Shown here piece by piece: positions 31,846-55,934 of a DNA stretch of 64,000 bases. The position numbers and the translations under genes were made by a program. The DNA is from a virus. Position 1 is the first letter of the stretch. Every line of letters starts with the position of its first letter. The notes below the pieces were generated by a model. The model searched no databases. It saw only the letters and a program-made list of their open reading frames with translations, and had not been told where the DNA came from. The stretch is from the IMG/VR virus record IMGVR_UViG_3300044835_000075, positions 32,001-96,000 of that record; one strand, given 5' to 3'.

Positions 31846-31876
31846 AACGCCCCCGCCGGATACCGGCGGGGGCGTT
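31846..31876. terminator. bidirectional terminator (shared stem family)
   Basis: AACGCCCCCGCCGG-ATA-CCGGCGGGGGCGTT. Confidence 0.7.
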
Positions 31877-31887
31877 CGACGTACGAA

Positions 31888-32036
31888 GGCCCGGAGTCTC
31901 CCCCGGGCCCGCGCTGCTCTACCAATTGAGCTACACGACCGGCTGCCGCTGGCCGCGCCCGGACTTGAACCAGGAACCACCGGCGACACTACCGGACGCG
32001 CGAAACCCGGGGCCGCCGTGGCGGGCACCCGGGCTC
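31888..32036 (-). ncRNA. circularly permuted tRNA-like RNA (YrlA/Y-RNA-like)
   Basis: T arm CCTGG-TTCAAGT-CCGGG precedes acceptor stem closed by a loop, then D arm GCTC-AATTGGTA-GAGC; no anticodon loop. Confidence 0.7.
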
Positions 32037-32118
32037 ACTTCCGCCCACGCGGGCGGCGGTCAGGTCACAGGCAGAGGAAACCGAACAGGTGGATCACCAG
32101 AAGAATCATGCCCGAAGA

Positions 32119-33312: not shown

Positions 33313-33352
33313 GGCGGGTTCTCCTCGGGGGTCTCTCGTGCGGTACCCCTGA

Positions 33353-33382
33353 ATGATAGCCGACGCTTGAGCGGCTTGTCAA
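33353..33382 (-). promoter_or_regulatory. Repeated promoter, class II
   Basis: TTGACA-AGCC-N11-GGC-TATCAT; GTACCG at +36. Confidence 0.8.
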
Positions 33383-33443
33383 CCTCAGGTTACCAGAAAA
33401 GCCCCGCCAGGAATCTGCCCGGCAGGGCTTCAGGGGTTGCGAA

Positions 33444-33788: not shown

Positions 33789-33823
33789 GCGGGGCTCCCT
33801 GGTCTCTCGTGCGGTACCCCTGA

Positions 33824-33853
33824 ATGATAGCCGACGCTTAAGCGGCTTGTCAA
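33824..33853 (-). promoter_or_regulatory. Repeated promoter, class II
   Basis: TTGACA-AGCC-N11-GGC-TATCAT; GTACCG at +36. Confidence 0.8.
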
Positions 33854-34001
33854 CCTCGAAGTAGATGCGGGGGCCGTATCCCTCGGCCGCGTCGAGATCT
33901 GGCACCAAGAGCGCCGCCACGCGGATCACTGCTGCTGGCCTCTCAACGCCCCATCACCGCTCACGCGGTCGCGTCCCGGGGTGAACGCAGGGCATCCGCC
34001 G

Positions 34002-34073
34002 TGGTCCCGGGAGGACTTGAACCTCCAGCCGTCATCGTATGAAGACGCTGCTCTACCACTGAGCTACGGGACC
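34002..34073 (-). tRNA. tRNA with CAT anticodon (Met or Ile2), no encoded CCA
   Basis: GGTCCCG/CGGGACC acceptor, GCTC-AGTGGTA-GAGC D arm, loop TTCATAC, GGAGG-TTCAAGT-CCTCC T arm. Confidence 0.85.
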
Positions 34074-34185
34074 AAAACGAGACCCAAGCGGGCCCTGTAG
34101 GGCGTCACCACCGCTCCGTCACCGGAGACAGGCAGCGCTGGGATAGTGTCGACGGCGAATTCCACACCGCTCCCGCCTGGATCTC

Positions 34186-34252
34186 GTGACAGCGAAGGAC
34201 TCGAACCTTCCCCCGGAACAGGTACGCCGGGGCCCGACCTTGGGAACTGCCT
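34186..34252 (-). ncRNA. degenerate tRNA-like element
   Basis: AGGCAGT/GCTGTCA acceptor, small D-like hairpin, CCCCGG/CCGGGG stem with 10-nt loop, GAAGG-TTCGAGT-CCTTC T arm. Confidence 0.55.
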
Positions 34253-34689
34253 CGGCACCGGCGCATCCACGCCAGTGCCCCCGGCCAGCCGCTCCAACAG
34301 CCAACCGAGTCGAACGCGGCACGACGGGCGAATCGTCACACCCCGACCCGGGCGCAGGAACACCCGAACCGGTCCAGCCGCGACGCACGCCCCTGCGGCA
34401 AGCACAGCGCGCGCCCCGACCGCCGCTGCAATTCGACGGCCGGTGTTACTTCGGTGGTCCCGCCCGCATCCACAACGAGACGGCCACTCACGAGATCACT
34501 CCCGCATCAACGAAACTGCCCTGCCCAAACCAGGCCAGTCCGCGAAGCTTCACGGTCCCCCGCGCCCGGACAGTGCCGGACGCGGGGAGTACCGCCCTGC
34601 GCCACCCCGGCAAGGGCAACGCACATCACAGCACCCGGGATTGCCGCCCCGTGCCACGGTCGCGGGTTTAGCGGCCCGCGCCGTGTCTG

Positions 34690-34813
34690 TTGTCCACCCC
34701 CGGATCGAACGGGGGCACACGGCCTCTCGGCTACCCACGGGGTGGAAAGACTCCGCGCGGTGCGGCCAGGTTCTACCCTGCCGCCGTGGCTCTACCAGCT
34801 GAGCTAGTGGACT
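34690..34813 (-). ncRNA. tRNA-like element with 59-nt insertion in place of the anticodon loop
   Basis: AGTCCAC/GTGGACA acceptor, TA-GCTC-AGCTGGTA-GAGC D arm, ACGGC/GCCGT stem, CCCCG-TTCGATC-CGGGG T arm. Confidence 0.7.
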
Positions 34814-34894
34814 ACCAGCGGACCCATCCGCCATTAGGGCCCCGCCTCGCCCGCCCAGTAGGTGCGCACCGGTCGAACGGGTTCAGCGAGAAGA

Positions 34895-35110
34895 TCAGTT
34901 GTCGATGCGCTCGTGCGAACCGTCGAGGCTGCGCGGCGCAGAGCCGACTCCCCCGCGCTTCGCCGCGAGCACCTCTTTCGCGGTGAAAAACGAGAACATG
35001 AGCGCAGCCACCAGCAGCAGCGACAGCCACGGATTGACGCCGAGCGTGATGAAGACGGCGATGAGGCCCAGCGTGACGCTGTACTGGATGAGAGAGCGAA
35101 CGTCGTTCAT
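34895..35110 (-). CDS. small membrane protein inside ncRNA cluster
   Basis: GAGAGGA RBS; MNDVRSLIQY..., two TM helices. Confidence 0.6.
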   Translation of the reverse strand: MNDVRSLIQYSVTLGLIAVFITLGVNPWLSLLLVAALMFSFFTAKEVLAAKRGGVGSAPRSLDGSHERIDN

Positions 35111-35294
35111 GCGGTTCCTCTCGAAGAGCTTTGGGTGGCCGTTGTTGCGTTGGTATCGAGCCTGCCGAAGCCGGTACAGCGGCCAAAACCGCGACAGGTA
35201 GAGCGTGCGCTTCACTCGGCTTGGCACACGCTGGGGCTTACTCCCGCCACCGTCCTCGTGAGAGTCCGGCTCGGCTTGACCGAGAGCCCCTTCC

Positions 35295-35353
35295 GTGCAC
35301 CGGCCCGGCTCGAACGGGCTGCCCATCCCTGCTGAGTAGCGCGGGGCAGTGCT
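35295..35353 (-). ncRNA. truncated tRNA-like element (acceptor plus T arm)
   Basis: AGCACTG/CGGTGCA acceptor, GCCCG-TTCGAGC-CGGGC T arm, only 27 nt between. Confidence 0.55.
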
Positions 35354-35563
35354 CCGACGGGTGTGTTTCGCCGTGAAGTTCCCACCGTCATGAACTCGCT
35401 GCGCACCGCTGCGTCCCGAACCCAACCTCGCACTGTGTGGAGCGTACGCGGCTCGCCGGGGCACAACGGGTGTTGCAGTCTCACGGGTGCCGGTCGTGGC
35501 ACACCCTGACCTTGTGTCGGAACCGGTGAGGCCTGGGGGACCCTCTCCGGCCCGACACCGCAG

Positions 35564-35593
35564 ACACTAGCCGGTGTCGTGGCGGGAAGTCAA
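35564..35593 (-). promoter_or_regulatory. Class II-like promoter heading the ncRNA/tRNA cluster
   Basis: TTGACT-N15-GGC-TAGTGT; left AGCC half-site absent. Confidence 0.65.
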
Positions 35594-35599
35594 CTCGGG

Positions 35600-36385
35600 G
35601 TATTGCGTGGTAGTCGCATGTAACTCTGAGTAACCCTCCTTTAATTATTACCATAATCAAGTCTCATCGGGGTAACGGTTTGGAGTACCTAGATTTGTGC
35701 AAGTTTGCAGCAGGTTAGCGCTTACTTTGCGCCGTGTTTGCGTGCGCTATGCCAGTGCTAGGCAGGCTCTGTATACCCCCGGGGGGTATCCGTGGCCAGC
35801 GTGGTCCAAATGCTAACTACCTGCTCTAAGATGCTAATCACCAGGTAGATGGCAATGCAAACCTCTAGTGGTCAAGCGGCAATAGACCACCCTATATGCC
35901 TTCTGACCTGGTGGTTACGGGTCATCAACCCCCTTTGGTCCGGGACGAGGTGCCTGTTTTCGGTTGTAAATTGCTATGCTAACCATGCTAAGTAGCTATT
36001 ATTTGCCCTGACCTGCGATGTTAGCGTTTTGCAAACTTAGCATTGCCTAAAGGGGTCGAAATCTGAGTCGTCGGACCATGGACCAACATCTCTTAAAGGG
36101 CAGGTCGGGAGGCACTTCCGTCGATCGGCCCGACTTGACCTCTTTGTCCGATTCTCGCGAGTGGACCGGCGTGGACCGCGTTGCCCTCGTCGCCGTCCTC
36201 GCTGGTCACGGCATTTCGCTATGGCAAAGCAATTGCAAGTCCAGGGGTGGACCGAAACAGCGCCAAAGTGGACGAGTGTTGGTGACCAAACGGACCATGT
36301 TAATTTCTAACATCACGGATATCGTGACCTTATCCATTGTAGACAGTCGAATTTGACGCCATGCGATTGCTATGCAAAGCTTCGC
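35600..36385. other. AT-rich non-coding region with short repeats, candidate replication origin
   Basis: Clearly lower GC; many TGCTA/TGCAA copies in both orientations; transcription diverges around it. Confidence 0.5.
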
Positions 36386-44249: not shown

Positions 44250-44455
44250 GCTGGTGGAACCTGGCCGGGATCCTCGCGGTCACCCTGTACCTGTGGGCCG
44301 GGTTCTGCCTGGCGTTGGAGGTGGACAAGGAGATCACCGCGTCGTTTCCGGTGCCGGAGGCGCTTCGGCGGGGGCTGGCGGTGCTGATGCTCGTGGGCTG
44401 GCTTCCGGTACTGATAGCGGGTGCCCTGACGGGGAAGAGCGGTGAAGGCAAGTGA
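44246..44455 (+). CDS. small membrane protein
   Basis: Two TM helices; GTGA overlap. Confidence 0.55.
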   Translation: MSWWNLAGILAVTLYLWAGFCLALEVDKEITASFPVPEALRRGLAVLMLVGWLPVLIAGALTGKSGEGK

Positions 44456-44772
44456 GCAGGAAACGGAGACGGCGGCCTATGGGCAGACACAGGGGACGCG
44501 ATGAGGTCGGTGAATCACCGGATCCAGCAGGTGGACCGGGAGCTGCTGAGATTCGTTGGCCTGGGGACGGACCCGCAGGGGAGGGACCCGGCGAACCGGT
44601 TGCTCGACGAGCGGTTGATCTTGATGGACGAGCGGGACCGAGGGTTCCGTCTCACCGATCGCCGGAGGGTCACGCCGACCACTTGACGTTGCCGCCCGTC
44701 GACAGTCTGGAGCTGCCGACACCGATTTTCGACGAGATGATGAAGGGATCCGCGTGGCAGACAGCGAGCTGA
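44452..44772 (+). CDS. hypothetical protein
   Basis: GTGA overlap; low complexity. Confidence 0.35.
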   Translation: MSRKRRRRPMGRHRGRDEVGESPDPAGGPGAAEIRWPGDGPAGEGPGEPVARRAVDLDGRAGPRVPSHRSPEGHADHLTLPPVDSLELPTPIFDEMMKGSAWQTAS

Positions 44773-55280: not shown

Positions 55281-55934
55281 ATGACGAGCAACATCGTCAA
55301 ATCCGCCAACGAGAAGATGGACCAGGCCCTGCGCCTGCTCGGCGAAGCGCAGGCCGCGATGCAGCTGGCCAACCGCTTCGGCGCCGAGCCCGAACCCGGC
55401 ACCGTCCTCGTGTTCGACAAGATCTTCCCCAACGAGGGTGCCGCACTGGACTCGCTCGGCCTGAACTTCGATCCCGAGAAGCTGGTGCCCGGCAACAAGT
55501 CCGCGCTGTTCGACGTGCTCAGCGGAGCGAGGCTCGGCGGCCGCGCGCAGTACGGCGGCGTGGTCGTCATCGACGACGACGACGCGTTCGCCAAGGCGAT
55601 GCAGAAGTCCTACCGCCACGTCGCCATCCGCATCGGCAACGTCTGGTACACCACGTCGCCCCGCATCTCCAAGGTGTCGTGGGACAAGCTCGCCGAGTTC
55701 ATCGGCGACTCGCAATGCTGGAAGGTCACCGGCACCGAGGAGATCCCCCTCGAAGCCCCCCAGGTCATCGAGCAGGCTTCCGAGCCCGCCGACGCACCCA
55801 ATGCCGCTGACGCGATCAAGGACAACCGCAAGGCGCTCATGGGCGCCCTGGCCCGCGCCCGCGCCAACGGCAAGAGCCCGACGCCGAAGGAAATCCTGGA
55901 GATCGTCACGAAGACGCTGGACTCCGACAAGTGA
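55281..55934 (+). CDS. hypothetical protein
   Basis: GAAGGA RBS; EP..GTV..F.K...Y..VAIR...WYTT...SW..L pattern. Confidence 0.65.
   Translation: MTSNIVKSANEKMDQALRLLGEAQAAMQLANRFGAEPEPGTVLVFDKIFPNEGAALDSLGLNFDPEKLVPGNKSALFDVLSGARLGGRAQYGGVVVIDDDDAFAKAMQKSYRHVAIRIGNVWYTTSPRISKVSWDKLAEFIGDSQCWKVTGTEEIPLEAPQVIEQASEPADAPNAADAIKDNRKALMGALARARANGKSPTPKEILEIVTKTLDSDK

Follow-up and report, generated by a model that had tools for sequence, protein, structure and literature searches.

A mostly non-coding phage tRNA locus with three tRNA-like elements that lack a usable anticodon loop

We analyzed a 64,000-nt stretch of a viral genome (the window; positions 32,001 to 96,000 of IMG/VR record IMGVR_UViG_3300044835_000075) and focused on the minus strand between window positions 33990 and 35593. 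This span is part of the largest non-coding tract in the 107-kb, 68% GC phage contig, and a genome-wide periodicity scan placed the largest tract without codon-position GC periodicity in the whole 107-kb genome here. The locus spans ~1.6 kb, is mostly non-coding, and contains, in order on the minus strand, a promoter, a 5' hairpin, a tRNA-like element (A), an open reading frame (ORF) of 71 amino acids, a second tRNA-like element (B), a block of hairpins, a third tRNA-like element (C) and a gene for tRNA-Met(CAT). What an earlier, sequence-only reading had observed at the locus was confirmed overall. Its interpretation fared less evenly: tRNA-derived folds and their possible use as processing marks were supported, and a large ornate RNA and a new kind of system were not. 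The phage appears to be novel, with a high GC content, and its protein relatives point to Pseudonocardiaceae hosts, for example Amycolatopsis. The closest of these proteins, P0003 (69% identity), P0005 (61%), and P0012 and P0017 (57%), are encoded on large contigs.

The promoter (35564-35593) consists of TTGACT (35593-35588) and TAGTGT (35569-35564) separated by an 18-nt spacer, and belongs to the phage's own promoter family, with the pattern TTGAC-N-(13-17 nt)-GCTA-NNN-T. There are 18 copies of this family in the 107-kb genome, compared to 0-1 copies in each of 20 shuffled sequences. Each of the other copies has a ribosome-binding site and a start codon 35-60 nt downstream; only the copy at 35593 leads into non-coding RNA. 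The next family promoter on the same strand (33824-33853) bounds the non-coding unit on its downstream side. It is the first of two 57-nt promoter copies that flank a cassette directly downstream of the locus, and an exact scan of IMG/VR for this 57-nt repeat gave no matches. A hairpin at 35514-35558, with GTGTCGG (35558-35552) pairing with CCGACAC (35520-35514), begins at about the position where transcription is expected to start. Folding of the two windows that cover it was modest (z = -1.6 for 35500-35649 and -1.9 for 35550-35699). Both the promoter and the hairpin had been noticed in the sequence-only reading, and both were borne out. The leader that follows (35354-35513) has neither a coding signal nor significant structure (z about -0.4 to +0.8).

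The ORF (34895-35110) encodes a predicted protein of 71 amino acids with two hydrophobic helices. It has GC3 periodicity and a Shine-Dalgarno sequence, GAGAGGA, that lies in the preceding spacer and 5' UTR (35111-35295). The protein is an orphan: it belongs to no Pfam family, and its sole match among 5.8 billion proteins was itself. Codon-position GC periodicity was absent from 35111-35600 and from 33930-34894. That is, periodicity within the tract is limited to 35110-34895, in agreement with the earlier count of one credible small membrane-protein ORF in ~1.6 kb. Just past the stop codon of the ORF is a T-loop-like remnant, CCCGTTCGACC... (34866-34881; repeat D6, 81%). It is possibly a decayed copy of the T arm of element A, judged from a weak sequence alignment, and we dropped it as a clear copy of that element because the alignment is weak.

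We searched both strands of the whole genome with a strict T-arm motif. There were seven matches, five of them in a 3.4-kb stretch of the minus strand, a clustering with a probability of ~2e-8 in a binomial estimate made by hand. We dropped one additional match, at genome position 23432, because it is within coding sequence. Element A (35296-35353) is a minimal fold of acceptor and T arm, with A1·A72, six acceptor pairs, a 27-nt middle and the T arm GCCCG-TTCGAGC-CGGGC; it has no anticodon arm. Element B (34691-34813) has a complete tRNA frame: A1·A72 and six acceptor pairs, U8, A14, a D arm with G18G19, G15:C48, U54-A58 and a perfect T arm. Its 5-bp anticodon stem (ACGGC/GCCGT) carries a 59-nt structured insert in place of the 7-nt anticodon loop. 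Element C (34187-34252) is a degenerate cloverleaf with A1·A72, G3·U70, a 3-bp D-like stem whose loop contains GG, a 6-bp stem carrying a 10-nt loop, and the T arm GAAGG-TTCGAGT-CCTTC. Thus, each element has a T stem with 5/5 Watson-Crick pairs, a T loop of the form TTCGAnn, 6/7 acceptor pairs and A·A at position 1:72, although the stem sequences differ among the three. We know of no standard tRNA with A1·A72. A 6/6 acceptor partner within 125 nt is expected by chance at about one third of sites in this GC-rich genome, and for this reason the acceptor assignment for A and C relies on the A·A flanks common to the elements, a feature noticed post hoc.

The three elements are not canonical tRNAs. 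As a standard we used the Rfam tRNA model RF00005, with its 29-bit gathering threshold and full cloverleaf. This model scored only 34002-34073 (62 bits), that is, the genuine tRNA gene of the Met/Ile2 type (34001-34073; anticodon CAT, G1-C72, no encoded CCA). Elements A, B and C were not reported by RF00005 even at E≤10, and C reached 20.8 bits with the tRNA-Sec model and 20 bits with mascRNA, both below threshold. All three have a 5-bp T stem, a TTCRANN loop and an adjoining acceptor 3' strand that pairs with a 5' strand. A canonical anticodon arm, in which a 5-bp stem carries a 7-nt loop with U33 and a purine at position 37, is missing from all three, as is any usable anticodon loop. Three tRNA-like folds next to one intact tRNA(CAT) had been proposed earlier, and the folds do hold up as tRNA-derived.

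Element B is not readily explained as a tRNA interrupted by an intron. No single excision restored U33 and a purine at position 37 in a canonical anticodon arm. As a positive control, we used the insert-bearing viral tRNA frames that we collected; removal of one segment restored a canonical anticodon arm in 35 of 56. In contrast, there were no solutions for B or for two frames from related phages (G002_119 and G005_95). We rejected the ARAGORN prediction for B, a tRNA-Trp(cca) with a 36-nt intron, because the intron would be at the non-canonical position 31/32, position 37 would be C, and the variable arm would be long. We also found no canonical tRNA with the acceptor and D arm of element B among 185,579 prokaryote genomes scanned. 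Within the phage genome, possible antisense or repeat targets of the inserts and the spacers were limited to chance-level 10-16-mers. Element B does resemble the tRNAs of Lak megaphages, which have "enigmatic intron" inserts (Devoto et al. 2019, PMC6784885), in that tens of extra nucleotides are in the anticodon arm.

Between elements B and C is a 437-nt block of 11 hairpins (34253-34689). It is G-rich and A-poor, with 72% of its bases paired, and 35 of its 157 pairs (22%) are G·U. Structure in the block was specific to the minus strand (z = -4.38, compared to -0.39 for the plus strand), and the hairpins are local and independent of each other. Sequence reading and window folding delimit a spacer (34074-34186) between element C and the tRNA. 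Structure in the spacers close to the ORF was not significant, and 150-nt windows starting at 35250-35450 were no more structured than shuffled sequence. Thus, the continuous GC hairpins of the sequence-only reading are present at 34253-34689 but not in the upstream third of the locus.

Approximately 2 kb downstream of the locus, on the same strand and outside the span analyzed above, is a likely circularly permuted tRNA-like domain of the YrlA type (31912-31982; RF02553, 32.4 bits, E = 4.7e-5). The match covers only model positions 23-85 and is below the gathering score of 69 bits. With this permuted, YrlA-like mimic included, three non-decoding tRNA-like elements and a single real tRNA are packed into 3.6 kb of this genome downstream of a defined promoter. 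We found no gene for Ro60/Rsr (TROVE) near this element or elsewhere in the 107-kb genome, and there was likewise no match to a CCA-adding enzyme or RtcB. [quoted passage not shown] 2014, PMC4201824). Elements A, B and C are like YrlA and other bacterial Y RNAs (RF02553) in mimicking acceptor, D and T arms without decoding. They differ in that they are not permuted and the phage has no Ro60 gene. The YrlA motif GNCGAAN(0-1)G is not at the 5' side of the domain here; GTCGAACG sits 3' of it, and we rejected this sequence as an Rsr-binding motif because it is on the wrong side (PMC4201824).

The sequence of the locus is not conserved in the phages that we searched. When the region was compared by megablast and blastn with 50,697 phage records, the tRNA-Met was its only match. 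A BLAST comparison of the tract with G001-G008 and L130 yielded chance matches and no orthologous sequence, and searches for relatives with the neighboring 532-aa and 925-aa proteins found nothing. Layout is a different matter. Three relatives (G001, G002 and G005) have similarly built loci of unrelated sequence, among them tRNA frames with 30-40-nt anticodon loops from which no single excision produces a decoding tRNA. The promoter family and the layout are shared by G001 and G005. G001 has a promoter followed by a tRNA and a tRNA-like element. In G005, the promoter is followed by a 95-nt tRNA frame with an anticodon loop of ~30 nt and then by an aberrant 72-nt tRNA-like element with C1xA72. 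In G002 there are three non-canonical tRNA-like elements, located in three separate non-coding tracts, and no tRNA gene of standard length. The sequence-only reading would have been undercut by homologues that were only randomly decaying tRNA pseudogenes. Instead, the relatives lack homologous sequence, yet have similarly built non-decoding frames. Two further similarities were dropped: the hairpin-dense block as a shared trait, since the flanks in G001 and G005 have z values of -1.0 to -2.7 with little strand bias, and an orphan T arm in G002 as an orthologue of the YrlA-like element, since the sequences do not align.

The closest documented precedent is the group of stable RNAs in the tRNA region of phage T5, and the locus is therefore of a kind already seen rather than the new system that had been proposed. 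In T5 (NC_005859, 30284-30644), RNA1, RNAI and RNAIII are annotated as stable RNAs between tRNA genes and small ORFs, and RNA1 is described as a "tRNA-like stable RNA with unknown functions". RNA1, like element B, has a large middle part that is unlike a tRNA, flanked by a canonical T arm and a segment resembling a D arm, and both loci have a non-decoding tRNA-like gene in a phage tRNA region with small ORFs. The two loci differ in that there is no sequence similarity and that host phylum and GC content are different. In addition, look-alikes here outnumber true tRNAs 3:1, all three have A1·A72, and A and C are reduced to hardly more than acceptor and T arm. We know of no T5 counterpart to the 437-nt hairpin block.

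We regard the t-elements of plant mitochondria and YrlA as functional analogues. The t-elements are non-canonical cloverleaves in which an acceptor stem is combined with a GGTTCRANYCC T arm. They are embedded in longer transcripts, and RNase P and RNase Z generate mRNA ends at their borders (Forner et al. 2007, PMC1920247). Elements A, B and C likewise combine a T-arm motif and acceptor in a non-canonical cloverleaf, with a proposed role in punctuation on either side of the small ORF. The GGTTCRANYCC motif is exact in C and in the tRNA-Met, and A and B deviate at the first base only (C for G). The t-elements, however, belong to an organelle, and their processing is known from experiment, whereas that of the phage elements is predicted.

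Based on these results, the explanation that we favor, with about an even chance of being correct, is that this is a phage tRNA locus from which tRNA-derived, non-decoding RNAs would be excised by RNase P and RNase Z. The promoter at 35593 would drive transcription to the left, giving a mostly non-coding RNA that starts with a protective 5' hairpin and contains in order A, the mRNA for the small membrane protein, B, the 437-nt hairpin-dense RNA, C and tRNA-Met(CAU). Elements A, B and C would be derivatives of tRNAs that lost decoding and kept the acceptor/T-arm half, with the whole D/T elbow kept in B. The acceptor and T arm are the half of a tRNA recognized by RNase P, RNase Z and the CCA-adding enzyme. 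Since A, B and C keep this half within one promoter-driven unit, tRNA-like processing marks, as suggested in the sequence-only reading, are a reasonable mechanism. Host RNase P and RNase Z would cut at the ends of A, B and C as they do at tRNAs, t-elements and M. smegmatis YrlA. Cleavage would release tRNA-shaped small RNAs, probably stable and comparable to the T5 RNA1 class, that may have roles of their own, and would punctuate the transcript into a small mRNA and a hairpin RNA.

It is also possible, though somewhat unlikely, that the locus is a decaying tRNA cluster or mosaic junk in which A, B and C are pseudogenes and only the tRNA-Met and the small ORF matter. Damage would then be assigned to deletion in A, insertion in B and point or indel decay in C, at a boundary that is prone to recombination. 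Genes are arranged in a highly mosaic order across this phage group, and therefore the tract could be recombination debris. Decay would fit the lack of sequence conservation in the relatives searched, the promoter duplicates flanking the cassette immediately downstream, the T-loop remnant past the ORF, the poor scores with the Rfam tRNA model and the missing anticodon loops. However, decay should strike stems too, yet 15/15 T-stem pairs and 18/18 acceptor pairs (positions 2-7) are intact. The T loops match the consensus in 3/3 elements, the unusual A1·A72 is common to all of them, and B keeps all tertiary-contact bases. In addition, the tract has its own promoter, and tRNA frames with expanded, non-decoding anticodon loops are present independently in three related phages.

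The main current view of phage tRNAs is that they replace host tRNAs lost to anticodon nucleases. To our knowledge, phage RNAs with a tRNA body but no decoding have been annotated since T5 and never explained. We suggest tentatively, as an unlikely reading, that a clade of ~100-kb Pseudonocardiaceae-type phages (G000, G001, G002 and G005) maintains promoter-driven, tRNA-shaped RNAs built to be non-decoding, which would serve as decoys, sponges or natural tRNA scaffolds directed against host factors with affinity for the tRNA body. Some would be frames in which 30-60 nt of unrelated cargo replace the anticodon loop. Others would be minimal acceptor/T-arm helices, in which the 1:72 mismatch would bar EF-Tu, and the neighboring YrlA-like RNA would work without a phage Ro60.

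For this locus in particular, we consider it quite unlikely that A, B and C are dedicated mimics, either decoys or sponges that would engage host factors recognizing the body of a tRNA, or natural tRNA scaffolds that stabilize cargo RNA. Targets of such mimics might be nucleases or toxins that bind the acceptor end or elbow, or Rsr/Ro60-type proteins, and the 59-nt insert of B would be an example of cargo. The selective retention of the acceptor/T half (plus the elbow in B), the YrlA-like domain nearby, the recurrence in G002 and G005 of non-decoding frames whose inserts are unrelated, and T5 RNA1 would all fit. On the other hand, none of the partner proteins sought (TROVE/Ro60, RtcB, CCA-adding enzyme) was found in the phage, the inserts have no conserved motif, their complementarity elsewhere in the genome is at chance level, and nothing at the locus separates mimics from plain processing signals. 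Should these RNAs be produced and prove stable, the clade would offer a compact system for the function of anticodon-less tRNA mimics, in which processing punctuation, decoys and scaffolds could be told apart. If they are not produced, the locus would be an example of tRNA genes decaying in a phage genome of mosaic makeup.

It is hardly credible that the locus encodes a single folded ornate RNA of ~1.5 kb, of the GOLLD or ROOL type, as the sequence-only reading had offered. The locus does adjoin a phage tRNA and has a strongly structured 437-nt core. However, Rfam found tRNA alone over the tract at curated thresholds and otherwise chance-level matches at E≤10, the GOLLD and ROOL covariance models gave no match at the gathering threshold or at E≤10, and no other large RNA matched. 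In addition, the tract is broken by an ORF with clear codon periodicity, its upstream third is unstructured, and its hairpins fold separately. Unrecognized protein-coding genes of atypical composition are very improbable as well: there are many mechanical ORFs of 90-218 amino acids on both strands, but these are expected at 68% GC, codon-position GC periodicity is absent, and the mechanical ORFs across the tract had no significant family match in Pfam or PHROG. Finally, we rejected attP-type tRNA fragments, because no tyrosine or serine recombinase was found in the genome and because A and C also keep the 5' acceptor strand.

We found that the tract at 33990-35593 (minus strand) is mostly non-coding and that the features of its sequence are real and not due to chance. 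They are most economically read as a phage tRNA locus in which tRNA-derived, non-decoding elements would undergo tRNA-like processing and then accumulate as small RNAs. The phage record (107,374 bp, 96% complete, ~68% GC; the window covers its bases 32001-96000) encodes mostly orphan proteins. Those recognisable include helicases, a DNA polymerase/primase-like protein, a DNA polymerase exonuclease subunit, a NUDIX hydrolase and tail proteins; the best phage match of the 925-aa helicase is merely 32% identical. A 227-aa protein encoded just downstream of the tract has 60 homologues (45-69% identity), several of them in records of Amycolatopsis, Actinokineospora and Pseudonocardiaceae, suggesting a host in that group. 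No Ro60/TROVE, RtcB or CCA-adding enzyme gene was found in the phage genome.

Codon-position GC periodicity on the minus strand was strong in the genes flanking the tract. From 33930 to 35600 it was confined to one ORF (35110-34895, minus) with GAGAGGA just upstream; its 71-aa product has two hydrophobic segments. Pfam and PHROGs gave no match for any mechanical ORF of the tract. That is, one credible small ORF in ~1.6 kb, as proposed in a sequence-only reading, is what we found. Only six tracts of at least 400 nt lack periodicity genome-wide, and the largest two are this tract and the adjoining AT-richer region. That region (35600-36350) is the sole AT-richer non-coding tract (55-60% GC), lies between divergent leftward and rightward units, and carries many short repeats of the TGCTA/TGCAA type; it is a candidate origin or operator region.

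The same reading placed a minus-strand promoter at 35593, ahead of a 5' hairpin, and both features were confirmed in the sequence. The genome has 18 copies of the pattern TTGAC-N-(13-17 nt)-GCTA-NNN-T, compared to 0-1 per shuffle (20 shuffles). Seventeen copies have a ribosome-binding site and start codon within ~35-60 nt; the 18th, at 35593, is followed by the hairpin GTGTCGG...CCGACAC (35558-35514) and, beyond it, by non-coding sequence. The 35593 promoter is more than a consensus match; it is a member of a family. Copies at 33853 and 33382, parts of a 57-nt duplication, are predicted to restart transcription downstream, so the non-coding unit would span roughly 35557 to 33990-33860.

The tract contains a single genuine tRNA, tRNA-Met(CAT) at 34001-34073 (minus), on which ARAGORN and Rfam agree (62 bits). 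We searched both strands of the genome for a strict T-arm motif (a 5-bp stem closed by G-C, loop TTCRANN). Five of the seven matches were on the minus strand between 31969 and 35314 (~2e-8, a binomial calculated by hand), four of them inside the tract. Three tRNA-like elements were recognised, all on the minus strand. Element A (35353-35296) has an acceptor, a 27-nt middle and a T arm. Element B (34813-34691) is a complete class-I tRNA frame that retains U8, a D arm with G18G19, G15:C48, and a 5-bp stem (ACGGC/GCCGT) closing a 59-nt loop. Element C (34252-34187) lacks a variable region and has a 3-bp D-like stem and a 6-bp stem that closes a 10-nt loop. A scripted read-out showed that in all three the T stem is fully Watson-Crick (5/5), the T loop fits the consensus, acceptor positions 2-7 form six pairs and 1:72 is an A·A mismatch; their stem sequences were all different. 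EF-Tu binding of initiator tRNA is weakened by a mismatch at 1:72. By chance, about one third of sites in this GC-rich genome have a 6/6 acceptor partner within 125 nt, so the acceptor call for A and C relies on the A·A flanks that they share, a feature spotted post hoc; for B, the canonical D arm removes this doubt. The proposal of tRNA-like folds beside an intact tRNA(CAT) stood as regards the folds and the tRNA. The Rfam tRNA model did not report A, B or C even at E<=10.

The minus strand also carries, some 2 kb downstream of the tract, an element (31873-32071, core 31912-31982) matching the Rfam YrlA tRNA-like domain (32.4 bits, E 4.7e-5; the curated cut-off is 69 bits, so the match falls short of it). 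Its order is T arm, acceptor 3' strand, 10-nt loop, acceptor 5' strand and D arm, with a terminator-like hairpin downstream, and the core can be read as a tRNA-like RNA in circularly permuted form. Like Mycobacterium smegmatis YrlA, which is cleaved by RNase P (PMC4201824), it has a 7-bp acceptor.

The claim of continuous hairpins held only in part. Between B and C, a 437-nt block (34253-34689, minus) forms 11 local hairpins (157 pairs, 35 G·U) with a minimum free energy of -256.7 kcal/mol (z -4.38); none of 100 shuffles folded as well, and the opposite strand gave z -0.39. This is good evidence that the block is structured as RNA from the minus strand. In contrast, the leader and the area around A were no more structured than shuffles. 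A GOLLD- or ROOL-like ornate RNA found no support: tRNA was the sole match in the tract at the curated Rfam threshold, and at E<=10 there were only chance-level matches, with no GOLLD, ROOL or riboswitch.

Relatives have mosaic gene order, and no orthologous DNA of the tract was found in those retrieved, in GenBank phages or in IMG/VR. Loci analogous to the tract were nevertheless found in three relatives. In one (G005, IMGVR_UViG_3300049005_000030; 101 kb; its version of a 732-aa protein is 66% identical), a promoter belonging to this family lies at 85141. Some 400 nt further on is a tRNA frame of 95 nt that has D and T arms and a perfect 7-bp acceptor, and whose anticodon stem closes a ~30-nt loop. 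An aberrant 72-nt tRNA-like element (85747-85818, plus; locus L163) lies 110 nt beyond, followed by further non-coding sequence; it has C1xA72, a 6-nt anticodon loop (TTAACC), a 2-nt ARAGORN anticodon and 30.3 bits in Rfam. C1xA72 is at the hallmark position of bacterial initiator tRNA. A second relative (G001, 101.6 kb) has, in this order, a promoter, tRNA(CTC) and a tRNA-like element within ~600 nt of non-coding sequence. A third (G002, IMGVR_UViG_3300030744_000156, 84 kb) has no standard-length tRNA genes and three T-arm elements, none canonical, each alone in its own 450-600-nt non-coding tract (36343, minus; 44442-44515, plus; 55507-55628, minus). Listed without regard to position, they are a 119-nt frame (40-nt insert, encoded CCA, 39.5 bits, the best Rfam score in that genome), a fold without a D arm whose anticodon-like loop is CUGCUAA, and an orphan T arm. 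Single excision restored a decoding loop in none of B, the 119-nt frame and the 95-nt frame.

The main rival is that A, B and C are decay debris. Recurrence of the expanded-loop design without sequence homology speaks against debris and is the main argument that the tRNA-like elements may serve a purpose, although it could also reflect a clade-wide tendency to acquire and break tRNA genes. A dedicated decoy or scaffold role, the interesting reading, is a minority one. Phage T4 makes two small stable RNAs co-transcribed with its tRNAs. Three stable RNAs are annotated in the phage T5 record, lying between tRNA genes and small ORFs; one is labelled "tRNA-like stable RNA with unknown functions". 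Element B is of the same kind as T5 RNA1, in which a canonical T arm and a segment resembling a D arm flank a large non-tRNA middle. Rather than the new system once suggested, the tract is a variant of a known but unexplained kind that the T5 RNAs precede. Plant mitochondrial t-elements, non-canonical cloverleaves with a conserved T arm, were shown experimentally to direct RNase P/Z cleavage and set mRNA ends (PMC1920247).

We rejected B as an intron-bearing tRNA-Trp, the call of ARAGORN in intron mode: the insert position is non-canonical, position 37 is a pyrimidine, and exhaustive single excision yielded no anticodon arm with U33 and purine 37. Applied to 56 insert-bearing tRNA frames from other viral contigs, the same test recovered a canonical arm in 35. 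B is also unlike in behaviour the insert-bearing tRNAs of Lak megaphages, described as enigmatic introns (PMC6784885). That the tRNA-like elements are attP fragments is argued against by the lack of an integrase in the phage genome.

tRNA genes of 110-130 nt occur in many mostly AT-rich viral contigs (IMG/VR loci L019, L020, L043, L051, L066, L068, L112 and others), and several can share one tRNA cluster (L003, L042). About one third of the frames examined (19/56) have a 35-55-nt insert inside the anticodon stem 5' strand, after position 27-29 and not at 37/38, often a hairpin followed by ACAGCAA; excising it leaves a canonical arm (anticodons GTT, GAT, GCT and others). We found no description of such 5'-strand inserts in phage tRNAs in the literature searched. 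At L002 and L014, the insert of a 121-nt tRNA frame holds a second T-arm-like hairpin (AACGG-TTCGAGT-CCGTT).

Promoter family copies in the window are at 33382, 33853 and 35593 (minus) and 37577, 45080, 50299, 55209, 57175, 62334 and 63533 (plus). The consensus, TTGAC(A/T)AGCC...(C/G)GGCTAnnnT, has an AGCCG/CGGCT inverted repeat within the spacer that may be an operator; the 35593 copy lacks its left half. The family is also present in G001 (15 copies) and G005 and has no copies in G002. The 57-nt promoter-plus-leader copies (33330-33386 and 33801-33857, minus; 56/57 identical) flank a single 114-aa gene (33788-33444; weaker GC3 bias) and a hairpin. In a related phage contig (L130), homologues of this gene are on the opposite side of the 227-aa gene. 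Together, the repeats and this arrangement look like cassette shuffling via promoter repeats.
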